Positions 7,915-50,346 of a DNA stretch of 64,000 nucleotides are shown here, in pieces; position 1 is the first letter of the stretch, and each line of letters begins with the position of its first letter. Below the pieces are notes generated by a model. It made no database searches, had not been told where the DNA came from, and worked only from the letters and a program-made list of their open reading frames with translations. The stretch is taken from the NCBI GenBank assembly GCA_963719515.1, contig CAVRCJ010000010.1, forward strand, positions 512,001 through 576,000. Direction: 5' to 3'. Position numbers and translations under genes: made by a program. Source of the stretch: an uncultured cyanobacterium. GTDB lineage: Bacteria; Cyanobacteriota; Cyanobacteriia; CAKZMO01.

Positions 7915-8267
7915 ACTACTTCTCAAGAAGCGAGACGAGACCGCCTTCGGTTATCGCTCAGGCAGCCCTGGGAACGCAATGGCTGACTTTTTCTACTGAT
8001 ATAGAACGTTTGAGACTGCAACGACATCGTATCAATTTGACAGAGACAGAGGCTGGCCTTCACGGGCCAGCTTTTTAATTGGTCTAATTCAGGCAAGGCC
8101 TGTAGGCGCGTAGCGTGGCGTGCCCCCTGCCAGCAATTCTCATCTTAGAAAACATAAGCAACTGACCGTTTGACTACGCTTTTTACCCCACCCACGATTG
8201 AACTCTAGCGCGGCAGTCCCTAATCTCAGCGCAGCGGATTAGGGAAGGATAGGGGACGGCTTCGCCG

Positions 8268-8678
8268 TCAATCAGTCGGTGCATCTTGGCGGTGGATGTA
8301 TTGTTTAAGCATTTCGATTGGGGCTCCGCCAGCGCTAGCGACATAGTAAGCGTTGGACCAAAACGCTTTATGTCCCCCGTAGTGTTCTTTGTACTGCTGG
8401 GGAAATTCTTTTTTCATGGTGCGGCTGGTTGCGGCTTTAAGGCTGCCAACGAGCGCAGAGATTGAGTTGCGTGGATGGAAGTCAACAAGTAGGTGGATGT
8501 GGTCCGCTTCCCCTGAGAACTCCAGCACCCTACACCCCATCTTCACGCAGACCTGAGAAATCATTTCCTCAATCCTAGCAAGCATTTCAGAGTTGATGGC
8601 TTTGCGCCTGTAGTGCGTTACAAATACTAGGTGCAGGTGCACGCTAAAAACGCTGTGACTTCCTTTTCTTGTTGGCAT
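8268..8678 (-). CDS. tnpA: IS200-type Y1 HUH transposase TnpA (apparently intact)
   Basis: HLVFVTHYRR, HUH motif DHIHLL, FWSNAYY and catalytic helix KQYIHRQ; ATG at 8678. Confidence 0.93.
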   Translation of the reverse strand: MPTRKGSHSVFSVHLHLVFVTHYRRKAINSEMLARIEEMISQVCVKMGCRVLEFSGEADHIHLLVDFHPRNSISALVGSLKAATSRTMKKEFPQQYKEHYGGHKAFWSNAYYVASAGGAPIEMLKQYIHRQDAPTD

Positions 8679-8707
8679 TTGGGCTAGGTGTAGGCTATTA
8701 TGGGCAC

Positions 8708-9612
8708 ATGGTAACAACTCGCCGCGTCACTTTCAAGCTGTATCCGTCCGCCACTAAGGCGGCGAAGCTGCATGATGCGCGGAAGTTGCACCAGTATCTG
8801 TACAATGCCGCACTAGCAGATCGCCGCGATATGTATAAGCGGTGGGGCGTCTCGGTGGACTACTTTGCTCAGCAAAACTGTTTGCCAGCATTTAAGAGAG
8901 AGTGGCCTGAGTACAAAGGGCTAGCCAGTCACGCCTTGCAAGCGACTCTAAAGCGGGTTGACCTAGCATTTCAGGGCTTTTTCAATGGCCTGCGGGGTTA
9001 CCCCAAGTTCAAGGCATTCCGCTACTACAGAGGTTGGACATATCCTTGCAAGTCAGGATGGAAAGCCCATACCGATGGTACAAATGGCTACTTGGAGCTG
9101 AGAGATTTGGGGTTGCGCATTCAGATGCGCGTTGGCTTCACCAGGTAACCAGCAGCATAGTACGCGATAACAGCCTAGTTGCTGGCGAACAACTCAACGT
9201 CAAGGGCATGACCCGCAAGGCCCAGAAGGGTAAGCGGAAAAAGCAAAAGGCCGGTCTCAACCGCTCTATCTTGTCGGTAGGGTTTGCCGAGATTGGCAAG
9301 CTGCTATCCTACAAAGAGGCTGAGGCCGGTGGATTCTATGTCGAGTCACCTACCCGGCAGCTTAAGCCTACTCAGCGGTGTGCTGTGTGCTGACAGACGA
9401 CGCCCAAGACGATGGCTGAGCGCACTCACGTATGCCAGCACTGCGGTCATGTTGAGGACCGCGATACCAATGCTGCCCAGGTCAACCTGATCTGGGCCAA
9501 GGGGCAGGAACTGTCCTTAAGCCGTCGATCCACTAGCTCCACTGATTGCCGAAGCATGAAGCGCCTAGCGGAAATGAAACGCGCGAAACGTCTAGCTCAG
9601 CCTTGCGGCTAG
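8708..9612 (+). pseudogene. tnpB: tnpB pseudogene (internal deletion with frameshift plus nonsense codon)
   Basis: N-terminus FKLYPS...YNAAL jumps at ~9130 to the RWLHQVTSSIV...EQLNVKGM frame with RuvC-I absent; TGA at 9391-9393 inside the zinc finger CAVC*...CQHCG; RuvC-III DRDTNAA present. Confidence 0.9.
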
Positions 9613-13723: not shown

Positions 13724-14043
13724 AATATCGCCAGTCCCAGGCAAACATCGAAAATGCGCCCTGCCTGCAGCCCTGTCCTAGGCTCCAATGATGAAAATCA
13801 AGCACTTTATCAACCTCCATAAGGGCACAACAGGCTTGTTTGTGTTTGCCCTGATGGTGCTTTACGGCAATTTCACAACCGCAGCTTGGATCTACCTCGC
13901 CCTCCACGGCACCTATGGTTTACTGTGGCTCATCAAAGATCGGCTCTACCCCGACAAAAGCTGGGAGCAGAGCATTTCCCTGATCAAGGGCATTGTGCTA
14001 TTTGGGGTGCTCGGCCTGTACTGGGCTGCGCCCGTTATTTTAG

Positions 14044-14492
14044 CTAGTTCGTGAAAGCCCCGCGCTGTATGCGCAGCATCAGCGTCGGGATGTAAGCGAG
14101 CGAGTCGAGGTGCGCCCTTGACTGGATGCCGAAGGCGGCAATTAAGGGCAGCGCCGAGGCGAGCAAAGGGTACAATTGAACCAAGCTCAAACTATTTCAT
14201 GGCGGCGGCCTGCTATCGTGACACAAACGTACAGCCCTTGGCTGGTGAACAGTGCAGACGGTAGAAAACGTAGCTGGAAATTGAATACTCGTCACTGTCT
14301 GGGGTTGGTCATTGCCTGGACATTAAACAAATCGCCTGTCGATGGGATCTAATCGGGGTTGCACGGCTTGCTGCGTAACTAGACAGGACCAGATGAAGCA
14401 GGATACCTTCTTGCGCGGCATCCATTAAATTGTGGTGCGTGAGCCAAGAAGCCCGCGCTCTATCTAAAAGATGAGCGTCGGGAGTATGTCAC
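14044..14492 (+). mobile_element. Non-autonomous IS200/IS605 (IS1341-type) deletion derivative, 449 bp
   Basis: Inserted 3' of TTAG; near-identical end hairpins CCCGCGCT(G/C)...(C/G)AGCGTCGGG at 14059-14089 and 14452-14482; right end GGGAGTATGTCAC; degenerate tnpB N- and C-terminal stubs in one frame from ATG 14199. Confidence 0.88.
14300..14492 (+). ncRNA. Putative TnpB omegaRNA scaffold in the mini-element right end
   Basis: GCCTGT...GATGAAGCAGGA...GTGA...hairpin...TCAC layout typical of tnpB 3' ends; CCTGTC/GACAGG pairing and GTGA/TCAC pseudoknot potential; 5' boundary approximate. Confidence 0.55.
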
Positions 14493-14913
14493 TGACGCAG
14501 AGGGTCCAACCGTCCTCCGCCCTAATTGCCGTCGCCGTCTCCCTAAACCTCTTGGGCATTTTCCTGCACTACGCAAGCGATGCTCAAAAGTATTTCACCC
14601 TCAAGTACCAGAAGGGGTTGATCACTGAGGGCCTGTTTGCCCGCTGCCGCAACACCAACTATCTCGGCGAGATTCTGATCTACGCCTCTTTCGCGATGCT
14701 GGCGATGCACTGGCTGCCCTTTGCCATCTTGGCTGGGTTCTTTGCGCTGGTATTCCTTCCCAACATGCTTAAGAAAGACAAGTCTCTGTCTCGCTACCCA
14801 GAGTTTGCGGCCTATCAGCGTCGCTCGGGGTTGCTGTTCCCCAAGCTATGGGGGGTTCCGGCGGACCCAGCCGGTTCTGTGCCTAAGGCCTCTGAAGAGA
14901 CAGTCGCACCGGG

Positions 14914-17244
14914 CTAGCCCCAGGCTCTGCGAACGCTGTAGGTGGGAAAAGTTCCGTAATGTTTGGCCCAGGGCATCTGGCCCACATAGTCGCAGCAAAA
15001 CGCCGTTTGCCCTTCAGAGGCGGCGATCGCCGCAAAGGCCTGGCTCGCGTAGACCTTGCCGGGGGGAGTGACGGGTTCAATCCGGGCTGTGTGGTTGACA
15101 TGGGTGCCCACGTAGCTGACCCGCCCGGTCAAGGGGTCCACCTTGCTGGAGACCGGACCGGCATGCAGGGCAATTCTCAAATTGAGGTCAGCGGGAAGGC
15201 CCTTGCTGCCCCAGTCTACCCGCTGCACCAGGTCGCACAGGTCTAGGGCCGCCTGCCCCGCCTGCTCCACGGTGGTGAACACCAGATAGAGGGCATCTCC
15301 CCAGGTGTTTCTCGTTAAGGGCCTGTAGCCAGGGGAATCGAGAAGCTGCGCTACAGCCCCCAAAAAATGGTCGGCAAAGGGCAGGAACTGCTCCTCGCTG
15401 AGGTGGGTATAGTTCACCACATCGGCAAATAGCAGTGCTCTCAGCACCGGGTCCATTGGCTTTGGGGGGCACGTTGAGGGGGATGTAGCCTGAGAAGACG
15501 GGGCCTGAGAAGATGTAGCCTGAGAAGACGGGGCTCGAGATGGCAGGTGAACCGGCTGGGGGTCAGCCAAGGCCGCCAAATCGATCACCTCCACCGTTTC
15601 GTTCCACTGCTGCCAAAGATTTACCGTATTGGCAGTCCCCTCCAAGCTGCCGAGCTGCCCGTCCCAAACCGCCAAGGGCACGAGATCACTGCCCAGCTGG
15701 TTCGCGCGAATCTTAGCGAGCCCGTGGAGCAGTCGATTGGAATAGTCGTAGAGGGTAGGACTTTGCTGCACGCTCTGCTCGGAGGCCACCACCACTTCCC
15801 TAGCCTTACCCATCACCTGCTCAAACCGCTTTTCCCACTGCCCATCCGGCTGCCGATACAGGGCGTCCCGAAGACAGGACTCTAGGCCGTAAGGCAGCAC
15901 AATATGCAGCTCTCCCTGCAAAGACTGAAGCGCTTCCAAAAACAAAATATCTGCCCCACAGGCCGCAGACGCATAGCCAAAGTGCGCGTCCAGATGCTGG
16001 AGGCGATCGCGAATTGCGCCGTACACCTTAGGCGCTAGCTCAGACGGGAACCGGGGCTGTTGGCGGTTGGGCGGGTCAATGCGATGACCGCAAAACATCA
16101 CGACGCGAGGGATATGGAACCATCGCTTAATTCGCGCTAGGTCAATTCCCAAATGCTGACCCAGCAGCAGCGCATTACGGCGGCTAGAGCTGAAATCTCC
16201 AAATCGCCCTTGCCCCTGTGCCACCGCCTGACCATAGAATTATTCCGCCGCTGTCAAATCCTTCAAAATTAGCGCCGCTTCTCCAAGCGTTGCCAGCAGC
16301 CAGTAGGCATCTCCGCCGGTGCGCGTCAGAGCAGCGAGCTGAGTCAGACAGGTTGCTTTGATCGCCCGCGCCAGCTGCCGGGCCTGCTCTAATTGATTCA
16401 TCAGACAGGCCATCGTCGCGGCGTTAATTCCGACCCAGATGCTGCCGGTCAGGGCATAGGCCTGCTGATAGCGCTCTGCCGCTAGGGCTAAGTGGCGCTC
16501 TGCCGCCGCTGGGGTAAAGGCCTGGGACCAGAGATCTTTGTGGGTGCGTGCGAGCAGACCGACGGTCTCTTCGTCTTGGTGTCCCGCCTGCACCAGCGCA
16601 GTCAATAGGGTATTGGCGGCGTCAGTAGAGCCACTGCGGGCCAGCGACAGCGACAGCAGCTGCTGTAGTCTGAGGTCGTTTGGCCATTGCTTCAGCCCCT
16701 CGCTCAGCACGTCGTAGGCCATTAGCGGCTCGCCAATTTTTAGGCTGGCCTCTCCCAGCGCCCGATAGACGGGGGGCGCTTGGGGGCTGAGTTTGATGGT
16801 TTCTCGCTGCAGAGAAATTAGGGTTGCTAAGTTCACCTCCGACGATTCTTTTAGCCTGTTGAGCGCCAGCGTCACCTCTGGCGATTCGGCCAAGGCCTCG
16901 TCTTGAGTCGCGCTCGCGTGCGTCGGCATTGGGCGCGCCGTTTCCGGGTCTGTGGCGCTAGAGCCGCCATCGATACGGTAGCCCAGCGCCAGCAGCACCT
17001 TAAAGACAGTCAGCGCTGCGTTACGCTGCCGCTGCTGCGATCGCTCGTTGAGCTGAGCGTAGGGCAACAGGTTGGGGTGGGTGCGGGCAGCAGAATCATA
17101 GACGCTGTCGTAGCGCCAGCCCTGGTGGAAGTGGTCTTTACTCCACAGGCTATGAACCGTTTGGGCCACCAGATCAGCTAACGCTAACTGCTCTGGCGCT
17201 AGCACAATATTGTCAATATCAACGGGCTGGGGATTGTACCTCAA
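14914..17244 (-). pseudogene. RyR + TPR (TRAF-binding/TPR-S-like) + SLOG-like + class III nucleotide cyclase, split by one in-frame TAA at 16240-16242
   Basis: Both ORFs are in the same frame (AAE-TAA-FYGQAVAQG); RyR motif YNPQPVD...HSLW...GWRY...THPNLLPY; MFCGHRID...ACGADILFLE; cyclase FADVVNYT, NTWGDA, RIALHAGPV, GTHVNHTARIE. Confidence 0.85.
15481..15540 (-). repeat. 15-bp coding repeat (SSQAT/SSQAP) in the cyclase linker
   Basis: GATGTAGCCTGAGAAGACGGGGC occurs twice at 30-nt spacing; encodes PSSQATSSQAPSSQATS. Confidence 0.7.
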
Positions 17245-48213: not shown

Positions 48214-50007
48214 ATGAAGCTCTCCCACCTGGCATAGCCGAGGTGGGAGTGTCCTATGCTAATCTCGAACTATCCTGAGTCCAGAGATCACATAGACAAG
48301 CCCAGCTTCGGGGCGACCGTCCAGAACATTTGCTGGAACGGCCCTCACTGTCCTTTCGGCGAGTGAGCTGAAGGATACCTCTGGCCGCTATATTTTGGCT
48401 TCCATTAAGGTCGCAGTTATAGCGCTTGCCAGAGGAGAATTTTGCTAGCGCGTAGTTTTTTGAATCGCGCTTAACAATGCCAGAGCCATCGTAGGCGAGC
48501 TTTGAGGTATAGGCAGCAACGACATCAATCACTTTGCCACCGACCTCTCGCCACTTCATTTCGGTATAGTCGCGGATCATGGCTTTGAGCCAACCATGAA
48601 AGCGCTGGCGCAGATTAGAACGTCGCCGCCCACCCGTCGCCTTCCAGCCTTTCAGATTCTCAAAGACAATCGCTTCTGAGTTAAACTCAGCCGCTATTTG
48701 CACAATCCGCTTAGACACGATGTGGCCGATTTGCTGGTTGATGTTCCGGCATTTTCGGTAGGTATTGGCGCAAAACCCCTTGTGGAGTTTGCCGCCCTTT
48801 CCCATCGTCTTAGATGCCCGCATTGAAACGGACTTGAGCCGCTTGTCTCGACGGTCTATGTCTTTTCCAGGGTGAATAAATTCACGATGGATTACAGTAC
48901 CGTCGTGGGTAACGACTACCACGGTCGCCGTGGTATTGATGCCCAGGTCAACCGCCGTGACATTGCCATCTGGCTTCCGTTTCGCTGGCATACAGTGAAA
49001 CGGGACTGATAGATGGCAGGACTTGGCATTGAAGATCAGCGAGGGCGACAGCAGCTTGTTGCCGGAGATTTCGTGGCGGTCACGTAGCCCCGTGATTTGA
49101 ACCGTTGTCCAGACCCAGTCAGACCCCGTAAATACCTTGATCTCAACCTGCTCGTAGCCCTGCAGCTTGTAGCACTGGCCCTTGTAGAGCGTGGGGTAGC
49201 AGCCTGCCGCTGCATTGAGTAGCGTGGGGTTCGCGTCCCGACGATTGCGAGAGTGCCCGCATTGCCAATCCCGATACCGGGTCAGGTAGCTACTGACCTG
49301 ACCCGCCGCAAACATGATGGCGGCACGGCGGTAGTAGCTCGGGAATTTGTGGAACGTCGCATCAATCAGCGCGTACTTCGGATTAGGGTTTTTCGCTGTT
49401 TGATGGGTGAGCCGTTCGACAGCCGGAACCAGTTCGTCGCTAGCCAGGCTTCCCAGATCTGGCCAGTGCGTGAAGACAACCCCGACCAAATGCCTGCATA
49501 GCCGACGATAGACCTTGACCGTTTCGCCGAACAGCTCTCGCTGTTGGGTCGTTGGGTTAAGCGTCCACTTGTCGGTGCGGATAATTTTGGCGGGTTTCTT
49601 GGTCTTCATGGTTCTAGTGTACTACAGTGAAGGAAGAAAATAAACCTCGAAATCGTTGGTATATCTCAGGTAAGCTCAGATCCTTTTCTCACAGTGTCGC
49701 TTTACTTAAGGTGCATATTGTGTTCGTCACTAAATACCGTCATCCGGTTATCACTGAGGCCATAGAGGCTGATATCAGGGCGCTGGCGGAGAGTATCTGC
49801 TTGAAAGTTGACTGCCTACTGGAGGACGCCAAGGCCGATTTAGGTAGCAAAGACCACATTCATTTGTTAGTGGACATAGCCCCGAAAGTGGCGGTGTCCA
49901 GGCTGTGCAATACACTTAAAACAGTGACTAGCCGGGAAATTAGAAAGCGGTATGCTGAAGAGCTACGGCCCTACTACTGGAAGCCTGTCTTCTGGAAGCG
50001 TGGGTTC
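48214..50007. mobile_element. IS200/IS605-family element, left end lost
   Basis: Right end on minus strand: guide GACA, hairpin CTCCCACCT-N10-AGGTGGGAG, then AGCTTCAT ending at 48214; divergent tnpB/tnpA; tnpA homology stops near 50007. Confidence 0.85.
48254..49609 (-). CDS. tnpB: RNA-guided endonuclease TnpB (RuvC triad intact, no zinc finger)
   Basis: RuvC-I AVDLGIN, RuvC-II VFENLKGW, RuvC-III NCDLNGSQNI; YTSKLAYDG replaces the CxxC finger. Confidence 0.92.
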   Translation of the reverse strand: MKTKKPAKIIRTDKWTLNPTTQQRELFGETVKVYRRLCRHLVGVVFTHWPDLGSLASDELVPAVERLTHQTAKNPNPKYALIDATFHKFPSYYRRAAIMFAAGQVSSYLTRYRDWQCGHSRNRRDANPTLLNAAAGCYPTLYKGQCYKLQGYEQVEIKVFTGSDWVWTTVQITGLRDRHEISGNKLLSPSLIFNAKSCHLSVPFHCMPAKRKPDGNVTAVDLGINTTATVVVVTHDGTVIHREFIHPGKDIDRRDKRLKSVSMRASKTMGKGGKLHKGFCANTYRKCRNINQQIGHIVSKRIVQIAAEFNSEAIVFENLKGWKATGGRRRSNLRQRFHGWLKAMIRDYTEMKWREVGGKVIDVVAAYTSKLAYDGSGIVKRDSKNYALAKFSSGKRYNCDLNGSQNIAARGILQLTRRKDSEGRSSKCSGRSPRSWACLCDLWTQDSSRLA

Positions 50008-50088
50008 AAAGCTATCGCAAAAATCGCGATCGCCCCTGCTTCTGAACCTGAGCAATCACCGCATAGTGCTGAGGGCCAGCAACCGTAA
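49627..50088 (+). pseudogene. tnpA: tnpA truncated at the 3' end
   Basis: HIVFVTKYR, DHIHLL and FWKRG present, but the catalytic Tyr helix (Y-x3-Q) is replaced by unrelated sequence. Confidence 0.82.
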
Positions 50089-50346
50089 CCATGGGCTGAG
50101 CAAAACCCGCCTCAGCGATCGCCACCCACTTCGCCACCTCACCCTCCCCCGCAAACTTTTCTTCAATACGCTTGCATTAGCCGCAAAACTTCGCTACGAT
50201 GCCAAGCCATGGATGCAAATTACACCGCGTCCTAATTTCCGACAACTCCAAAGATTTAGCGCCCCCTGGAAGTGCTGACACACGACCAGGGGACTCACCG
50301 CACGCTGAACGAACCAGCGGTTGGCTACTGGGATTTTATCCCGGAC

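Follow-up and report, generated by a model that had tools for sequence, protein, structure and literature searches.

A conserved RNA domain precedes the omegaRNA-like module of a protein-free IS605-family mini-element in a cyanobacterium

A 449-bp stretch that interrupts a gene in an uncultured cyanobacterium is a real, multi-copy, protein-free mini-element of the IS605 family. The 3' 198 nt of the element has, to judge from its sequence, the architecture of an omegaRNA. The interior ahead of this module (14194-14281) is, on comparative evidence, a rod-shaped conserved RNA domain and not tnpB debris. Protein-free IS605 derivatives that carry an omegaRNA are already known, according to the available text of Meers et al. 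(2023); the apparently new part is the conserved front RNA domain. Positions are those of the window, i.e. the whole 64,000-nt stretch that was analyzed, which comes from a genome of 5.28 Mb.

The element spans 14044-14492; its left boundary falls between TTAG and 14044, and its right boundary follows the TCAC that ends at 14492. An earlier note on this DNA had read the apparent intergenic gap as an exact insertion, and this reading is borne out: excision of 14044-14492 joins a single 226-aa ORF (13788-14917) that is in register with four orthologs of the host gene. These four (203-223 aa, from 16 other genomes of the same family) are uninterrupted, have the same junction spacing without an indel, and do not contain the inserted sequence. 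An open frame also results from many alternative cut points of 3n+2 length, so that the frame alone is insufficient to fix the ends; they are fixed by the 18 copies described below together with the four uninterrupted orthologs that lack a junction indel. Comparison of the copies also confirmed the boundaries TTAG and TCAC that the note had proposed. The 3' half of the interrupted gene corresponds to Pfam DUF1295. On the minus strand, at 14914-17244, are two neighboring ORFs of 334 and 436 aa, of which the latter encodes an adenylate/guanylate cyclase domain; this pair may be one split gene.

The genome contains 18 full-length copies of the 449-bp element, which share 98.7-100% identity. All begin with CTAG; 17 of the 18 follow TTAG (the other follows CTAG) and 17 of the 18 end in TCAC (the other in TCGC). 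Their flanks are unrelated, the right flanks all differ, and there is no target duplication. The element is thus not single-copy, and TnpB genes are present in the same genome. It has no transposase or nuclease ORF; a TnpA with matching ends is encoded elsewhere in the genome.

Both ends have subterminal imperfect hairpins and no terminal inverted repeats. The two hairpins are 75% identical and fold as single-stranded DNA, with z-scores of -2.6 (left) and -3.3 (right) relative to shuffled sequences. By the rule known from IS608, the tetranucleotide at the foot of such a hairpin predicts the cleavage site. The feet of the window copy read AAGC (left) and GAAG (right), and among 113 left ends of this type in the genome AAGC accompanies TTAG in 91, AAGT accompanies TTAA in 15 and TTCA in one, and six are variants or unassigned. 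The claim that the end hairpins resemble each other closely and that their feet match the observed sites therefore stands, at 75% identity and with 91 of 113 left ends pairing AAGC with TTAG. Four of the 18 copies have CAGC in place of AAGC at element position 12 (window 14055); three of these are still at TTAG and one is at CTAG. The features of the element and its host gene are collected in Table 1.

Table 1. Features of the mini-element and of the interrupted gene, in window coordinates
Feature	Position	Strand	Remarks
Host gene, 5' part	13788..14043	+	Ends in TTAG (14040-14043), the target site and predicted TAM
IS605 left end	14044..14089	+	Guide tetranucleotide AAGC 14055-14058; hairpin 14059-14089
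Hairpin upstream of promoter	14110..14154	+	Variable; missing in homolog L084; precedes predicted transcript
Predicted -10 box TACAAT	14168..14176 (box 14171-14176)	+	GGG precedes the box here; start probably near 14183
Front RNA domain	14194..14281	+	Outer stems, P2, 7x7 internal loop, P3; covariation
P2	14218-14224 with 14252-14257	+	Front domain; bulged A
7x7 internal loop	AAACGUA 14225-14231 / GUGAACA 14245-14251	+	Nearly invariant
P3 hairpin	14232-14244	+	Front domain
OmegaRNA stem 1	14297..14321	+	Loop GGUCA 14307-14311, putative ISDra2-type pseudoknot partner of GUC 14488-14490
Linker, stems 2-3	14322..14447	+	A-rich linker (candidate triple-helix strand); variable GNRA-capped hairpin
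Stem 2	CCUG 14335-14338 / CAGG 14399-14402	+	Conserved in homologs
IS605 right end = omegaRNA stem 4	14448..14492	+	GAAG 14448-14451; hairpin 14452-14482; terminal TCAC
Host gene, 3' part, DUF1295	14493..14917	+	Pfam and ortholog comparison
Host flank, would-be guide	14493..14512	+	Matches the empty site next to TTAG; placed by analogy with ISDra2

Is the interior a remnant of tnpB or something else? The earlier note took it for decayed coding sequence, namely a tnpB 5' stub with two TAG stops fused to a tnpB C-terminal tail. We found no TnpB similarity in the interior. The peptide obtained by reading through the stops matches only mini-elements (28 at E<=10) in a genome with 81 TnpB zinc-ribbon matches, and none of the six stop-masked frames matches a TnpB Pfam family at E<=1. 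The supposed C-terminal tail is omegaRNA read as protein. The reading as decayed coding sequence is not supported: no other part of the element is as conserved as the interior, which also has compensatory base changes.

The core of the front domain, UGACACAAACGUA-hairpin-GUGAACAGUGC, recurs with at most one or two changes in three relatives in this genome (C4, C1 and C6, 69-73% identical) and in G349 from another family, all of which were found without using the core motif. In 11 aligned sequences 91.9% of 161 cells are paired, and 8 of 15 pairs have two-sided changes. The covariation score is 0.45, compared with 0.155 after shuffling and no more than 0.114 when partners are slid, in these 11 sequences, from which the structure was itself derived and whose relatedness inflates the shuffle test. 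Homologs found later, and so outside the derivation of the structure, replace U-A by C-G in P2 and CAG/CUG by CUG/CAG in P3; the stems also show length indels among homologs. At position 14218, four of the 18 copies, the window copy included, have a G, which disrupts a pair formed as C-G in the remaining 14. Of the 25 core positions, 22 are conserved in 13 or more of 14 homologs; the corresponding figures are 13 of 69 for stems 2-3 and 19 of 45 for the right end. This contrast is biased upward because the core was the route to most homologs. Eight homologs share only 49-59% overall identity with the window copy. That the front domain is required is made less likely by a related mini-element (L067) without one, and by the 392-bp, 422-bp and C7-type minis described below, whose front domains are unrelated to this one.

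Two further pairings were tried and dropped: one of core UGACA with terminal UGUCA, which is possible in 8 of 11 homologs, lost in the others, and in conflict with the covarying P2; and a pseudoknot joining stem 1 to the front domain's outer loop, which on inspection by eye is inconsistent across homologs. No Rfam covariance model for self-cleaving ribozymes, HEARO, group I or II introns, IS605-orfB or RAGATH motifs matched the element at E<=5. In six homolog loci the sole Rfam match was a weak one to RAGATH-18 (25.7 bits, cut-off 44.9), located downstream of the front domain in L093. Possible resemblances to hatchet, pistol and hairpin ribozymes, 5S loop E and HEARO found no Rfam support and were set aside. 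A search of Rfam and of the running text of openly accessible papers returned no description of the front domain.

The front domain spans eight families, that of this genome included. The searches for it overlap and their counts are not additive. A looser pattern matched 10 of 400 other cyanobacterial genomes, nine of them real (reversed control, 0), and a pattern scan of the genome contig collection likewise gave nine real matches of 10. Eight matches in metagenomes comprised five verified, one unverified (L087) and two due to chance; viral contigs gave none with the front-domain patterns. The covariance model matched two of 149 other genomes of the class, and in this genome 21 places, all in minis. 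The matches discarded as chance were L076 (one of 10), L083 and L088 (two of eight), L115-L117 (three weak ones of four model matches, in 121 genomes) and L144/G227 (one of 10 genomes). All real matches with readable flanks lie in gene-less IS605-type elements, upstream of an omegaRNA-like 3' module; the C6 relative is truncated before this module and several homolog contigs end inside the element. Two other genomes have seven (G236) and six (G587) copies of the element, so the family is mobile elsewhere too.

The 198 nt of the 3' module are shared with the 422-bp family at 83-85% identity and begin at 14295, which is the foot of stem 1 and corresponds to the starting point of the ISDra2 scaffold; the element is therefore modular. 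The order of parts in the module (stem 1, linker, stem 2, right-end stem) is that of ISDra2. Stem 2 (CCTG/CAGG) retains all four pairs in nine of nine aligned homologs, with a C-G to U-A change in two of them. In the ISDra2-type pseudoknot all three positions pair in 8 of 14 homologs, and six of the 14, among them the window copy, have a central U-U; the resident TnpB families covary at this pseudoknot (GAA/UUC, GAC/GUC and GGC/GUC, read by eye). The earlier view that an omegaRNA-like region has been retained is upheld by the stem order and the covariation of stem 2, with two of its details misassigned. A CCTGTC/GACAGG stem forms six of six pairs in the window copy and two to five of six in eight homologs. 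For the proposed GTGA/TCAC pseudoknot, the loop reads GUGA, GCAA, GAGA, AUGA, GCGA or GCGC in homologs, varying as a GNRA tetraloop does, and all four pairs form in just two of nine. Both are misassigned because the pairs fail in homologs and the loop varies in this GNRA-like way. A 14-nt long-range complement (14118-14131/14416-14429) was also rejected; it is lost in homologs and has one arm upstream of the predicted start. None of the 18 guides has a TTAG-adjacent 12-nt match (<=1 mismatch) elsewhere, a result that is uninformative since the chance expectation is only ~1.6 in all.

A single RNA of ~310 nt plus guide is predicted to be transcribed from the element. The TACAAT box to which the earlier note drew attention is present; there is no sigma70 -35 box at 16-18 nt from it (0 sites). 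TGn, as in an extended -10, precedes the box in 9 of the 12 homologs displayed, the window copy having GGG, and a -10-like box lies 36-69 nt upstream of the front domain in all 12 homologs checked. Two metatranscriptome runs (X1 and X2) have contigs of relatives (4-5% of words) that run across the element, and little on the flanking gene. The coverage by these contigs peaks at the left end, ahead of the promoter, and they show neither RNA ends nor strand; as they belong to relatives they give no evidence on transcription.

Which resident proteins could act on the element? The genome has 14 Y1-TnpA matches in addition to the TnpB matches noted above. A census by regular expression, which missed 4 of the 18 449-bp copies, counted 104 paired elements of this end type: 52 minis of ~392 bp, 16 elements of ~1483 bp, 14 of the 449-bp copies, 10+2 tnpB-only elements, six minis of 422/424 bp, three tnpA+tnpB elements and one other mini. 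The three tnpA+tnpB elements have an AAGC/TTAG left end and a GAAG/TCAC right end, matching those of the mini; in two of them (C1:305k and C10:313k) the TnpA frame is open over 163 aa and includes HUH and Tyr motifs. The left end of the 449-bp element is 92-97% identical over ~63 nt to those of five TTAG tnpB-only elements (C10:892623, C15:88261, C7:7153, C3:362181 and C11:131246). Among their tnpB genes, the one at C10:892623 keeps a complete frame including the D, E and D motifs; each of the remaining four has a frameshift or is missing the E motif. Mini families pair with TnpB families by left end and scaffold type: the 392-bp minis (52 copies) with the 1483/1800-bp TnpB family, the 449-bp minis with the TTAG tnpB-only family, and the 422/424-bp minis (six) with a TTAA sister of that family.

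The earlier note envisaged a parent tnpB with the same right end, and none in the genome shares a near-identical omegaRNA. In searches of this genome with a profile of the mini scaffold, resident TnpB ends scored 7.5-22.6 bits versus 106-160 for related minis, and no tnpB element with a near-identical omegaRNA was found; there is therefore no direct parent here. An exact 24-nt pattern for the parent tnpB had no match in the genome contig collection, none of 72,556 plasmids searched matched the element, and 16 other genomes of the same family contained no full copy of it. Another genome, G321, has a full-length tnpB element whose protein belongs to the same family and whose omegaRNA is closer (76% over 74 nt).

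Several other elements were seen in passing. The 392-bp gene-less minis (e.g. C3:709281-708889; 52 copies), which have TTAG/TCAC ends and a relative in L014, combine the scaffold type of the 1483/1800-bp TnpB family with a structured front domain of their own, in which a compensatory change is visible in the G011 copy. The 422/424-bp minis (C10:325086-324665 and five others) have a TTAA left end and the omegaRNA of the 449-bp family; their front domain differs from the 449-bp one and recurs in another family (L068, G166). Minis at C7:179.6-180.1k and C4:97.9-98.4k have other IS605/IS1341-type ends, the pre-promoter hairpin of the 449-bp family and a different front domain. Two left ends are joined head to head in a short palindrome at C6:143690-143749. 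Within the window, two more IS605 tnpA+tnpB elements with other ends lie at ~8200-9600, where tnpB has an internal TGA, and at ~48300-50100, where tnpA matches only part of its family. Short palindromic insertions occur inside tnpB elements and minis (C10:894.0k, C3:360.8k and C10:777.0k; L142 and L151), hitting the right-end hairpin, the omegaRNA or the RuvC-II region of several tnpB elements; they resemble cyanobacterial small dispersed repeats. They recall the SMR attack on PATEs in the accessible part of PMC3119063.

PATEs themselves were defined in PMC3119063, and protein-free elements like them frequently carry omegaRNAs for use in trans (Meers et al. 2023, 10.1101/2023.03.14.532601). 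As in the available text of both sources, the 449-bp element has no ORF, subterminal hairpins, a fixed target tetranucleotide and ends in common with tnpA/tnpB elements; as in Meers et al., an omegaRNA is kept and its use in trans is proposed. Unlike it, the PATEs of these sources are deletion derivatives for which the available text mentions no conserved RNA domain before the omegaRNA, whereas the interior here is a structure independently conserved over eight cyanobacterial families. The ISDra2 scaffold consists, in the available account of Nakagawa et al. (PMC10097598), of stem 1, a triple-helix strand and stems 2-4, with a pseudoknot between -5 to -3 and bases -103 to -105 in the stem-1 segment; RNA 5' of stem 1 is dispensable and trimmed off. 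The mini resembles it, as far as that account goes, in the pseudoknot partner in the stem-1 loop, the triple-helix linker, stem 2, a stem 4 that is the right-end hairpin, and a 3' guide taken from the flank. It differs in its longer scaffold (196 nt vs 116), in the central U-U of its pseudoknot, and in its 5' extension, which is a conserved non-coding domain where that of ISDra2, as described, is trimmed tnpB coding sequence.

The work of Altae-Tran in 2021 on standalone omegaRNAs reportedly concerns mainly IscB. Group I introns are spliced after a U at one end and after a G at the other; the mini ends, which fall after TTAG and after TCAC, do not fit such sites. IStrons, as far as PMC13565253 was available, also have a second structured RNA on the omegaRNA transcript of an IS605-type element, as predicted here; unlike them, the mini has no group I intron match and no tnpB, and its extra domain is only ~90 nt. 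Standalone omegaRNAs have been shown to work in trans (PMC10691335), and the minis are like them in being mobilized RNA-only loci in genomes that also have effector loci; no front domain is mentioned in the summary of them consulted there. Nor do the accessible parts of PMC13565253 or of the Arc preprint 10.64898/2026.09.24.754181 mention such a domain.

We propose, with slightly more confidence than doubt, that the element is a PATE moved by a resident TnpA, with a ~310-nt RNA whose back 198 nt would load TnpB and whose front 90 nt would protect the RNA or aid loading. The observed parts of this scheme are the exact insertion after TTAG, in 18 copies, with ends matching a resident tnpA+tnpB element, and the conserved structure of the front domain. 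By analogy with IS608 and ISDra2, TnpA would peel the element out as single-stranded DNA and leave an empty site. The internal -10 promoter is predicted to drive RNA through the right end into the flank, and the scaffold would be bound by the resident TnpB to which left end and scaffold type point, with an intact D-E-D copy at C10:892623. This TnpB would then cut the empty site at TTAG, and repair from the sister chromosome would copy the element back. TnpB guide RNAs normally sit inside tnpB mRNA. The front domain would replace this mRNA, which normally delivers the omegaRNA, and this is the weakest step; its invariant internal loop would bind a conserved partner. A host factor, or the RNA's own chemistry, is a likelier partner than a co-evolving TnpB because the loop is fixed while ends and scaffolds diverge to ~50% identity. 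Nothing known requires the front domain, in that the ISDra2 RNA 5' of stem 1 is dispensable and trimmed off in the available account.

Taken separately, movement by TnpA in trans is highly probable on this analysis. That the RNA is made and guides a resident TnpB to the empty TTAG site, restoring the element by recombination, we consider fairly probable. Whether the front domain protects or delivers the RNA outside the context of a tnpB mRNA is close to an even question, leaning toward no. The earlier note's idea of a mobile protein-free mini with an omegaRNA usable by resident TnpA and TnpB is thus supported, and its view of the interior as a decayed coding part is not. A broader and more speculative reading, which we regard as rather unlikely, makes such minis two-domain RNA-only parasites, in which a TnpB scaffold is joined to a nearly invariant front module (a small self-cleaving ribozyme of a new class or a site for a conserved host factor) through which the RNA would acquire a TnpB in trans.

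Catalytic cores typically have invariant loop nucleotides set between stems that covary. The front domain has this pattern, with 22 of 25 core positions constant in at least 13 of 14 homologs at 49-59% identity to the window copy in eight, and its constancy over different scaffolds and ends needs no co-evolving protein. The domain could thus be a self-cleaving RNA that frees the omegaRNA from its precursor or from host read-through transcripts. This we judge improbable: no Rfam ribozyme matches, inspection revealed no conserved pseudoknot or second docking loop, and the conservation is inflated by homologs found mostly through the core. Much the same odds, if anything slightly worse, attach to the possibility that the RNA binds TnpB or a host factor as a decoy or regulator rather than as a guide, the element being spread by TnpA alone. 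The central U-U in the pseudoknot of this lineage and a scaffold diverged from every resident TnpB element would suit a decoy, as would the restraint of tnpB expression by IS605-family elements in the accessible part of the Arc preprint 10.64898/2026.09.24.754181; however, the pseudoknot is fully paired in 8 of 14 homologs, stem 2 covaries, and the guide position and the TAM-defining left end match a resident TnpB family.

The interior might instead act as single-stranded DNA in the excised circle, in TnpA binding, protection or second-strand priming. IS605 elements do move as single-stranded DNA, and compensatory stems cannot separate RNA from it. But in 12 of 12 homologs checked a -10-like box precedes the domain by 36-69 nt; the domain also tolerates G-U pairs and adjoins GNRA/UUUU-type loops, and it is missing from full-length tnpA/tnpB elements with the same ends (21 model matches, all minis), which makes a role as DNA quite improbable. 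The least credible account is the earlier one of a simple internal tnpB deletion in which what is left of the coding sequence decays neutrally. TnpB elements are indeed the source of the left end and the omegaRNA, and a similar omegaRNA is present in the full-length tnpB element of G321; the interior, however, has no protein similarity and is the part best conserved over eight families, with compensatory changes and stem-length indels, so that the covariation contradicts this account and we give it hardly any weight.

The family bears on how RNA-only copies come to be expressed, stabilized and loaded in trans. It provides a ~90-nt test object with a fixed core and natural compensatory variants, in a genome that also supplies 18 natural guides, the matching TnpA and an intact TnpB. 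Should the front domain neither aid the guide nor self-cleave, the element would be a clean, ordinary PATE that knocked out a DUF1295 gene. A self-cleaving domain would be a new ribozyme; one that made the guide more stable or easier to load would be directly useful for compact TnpB editors.
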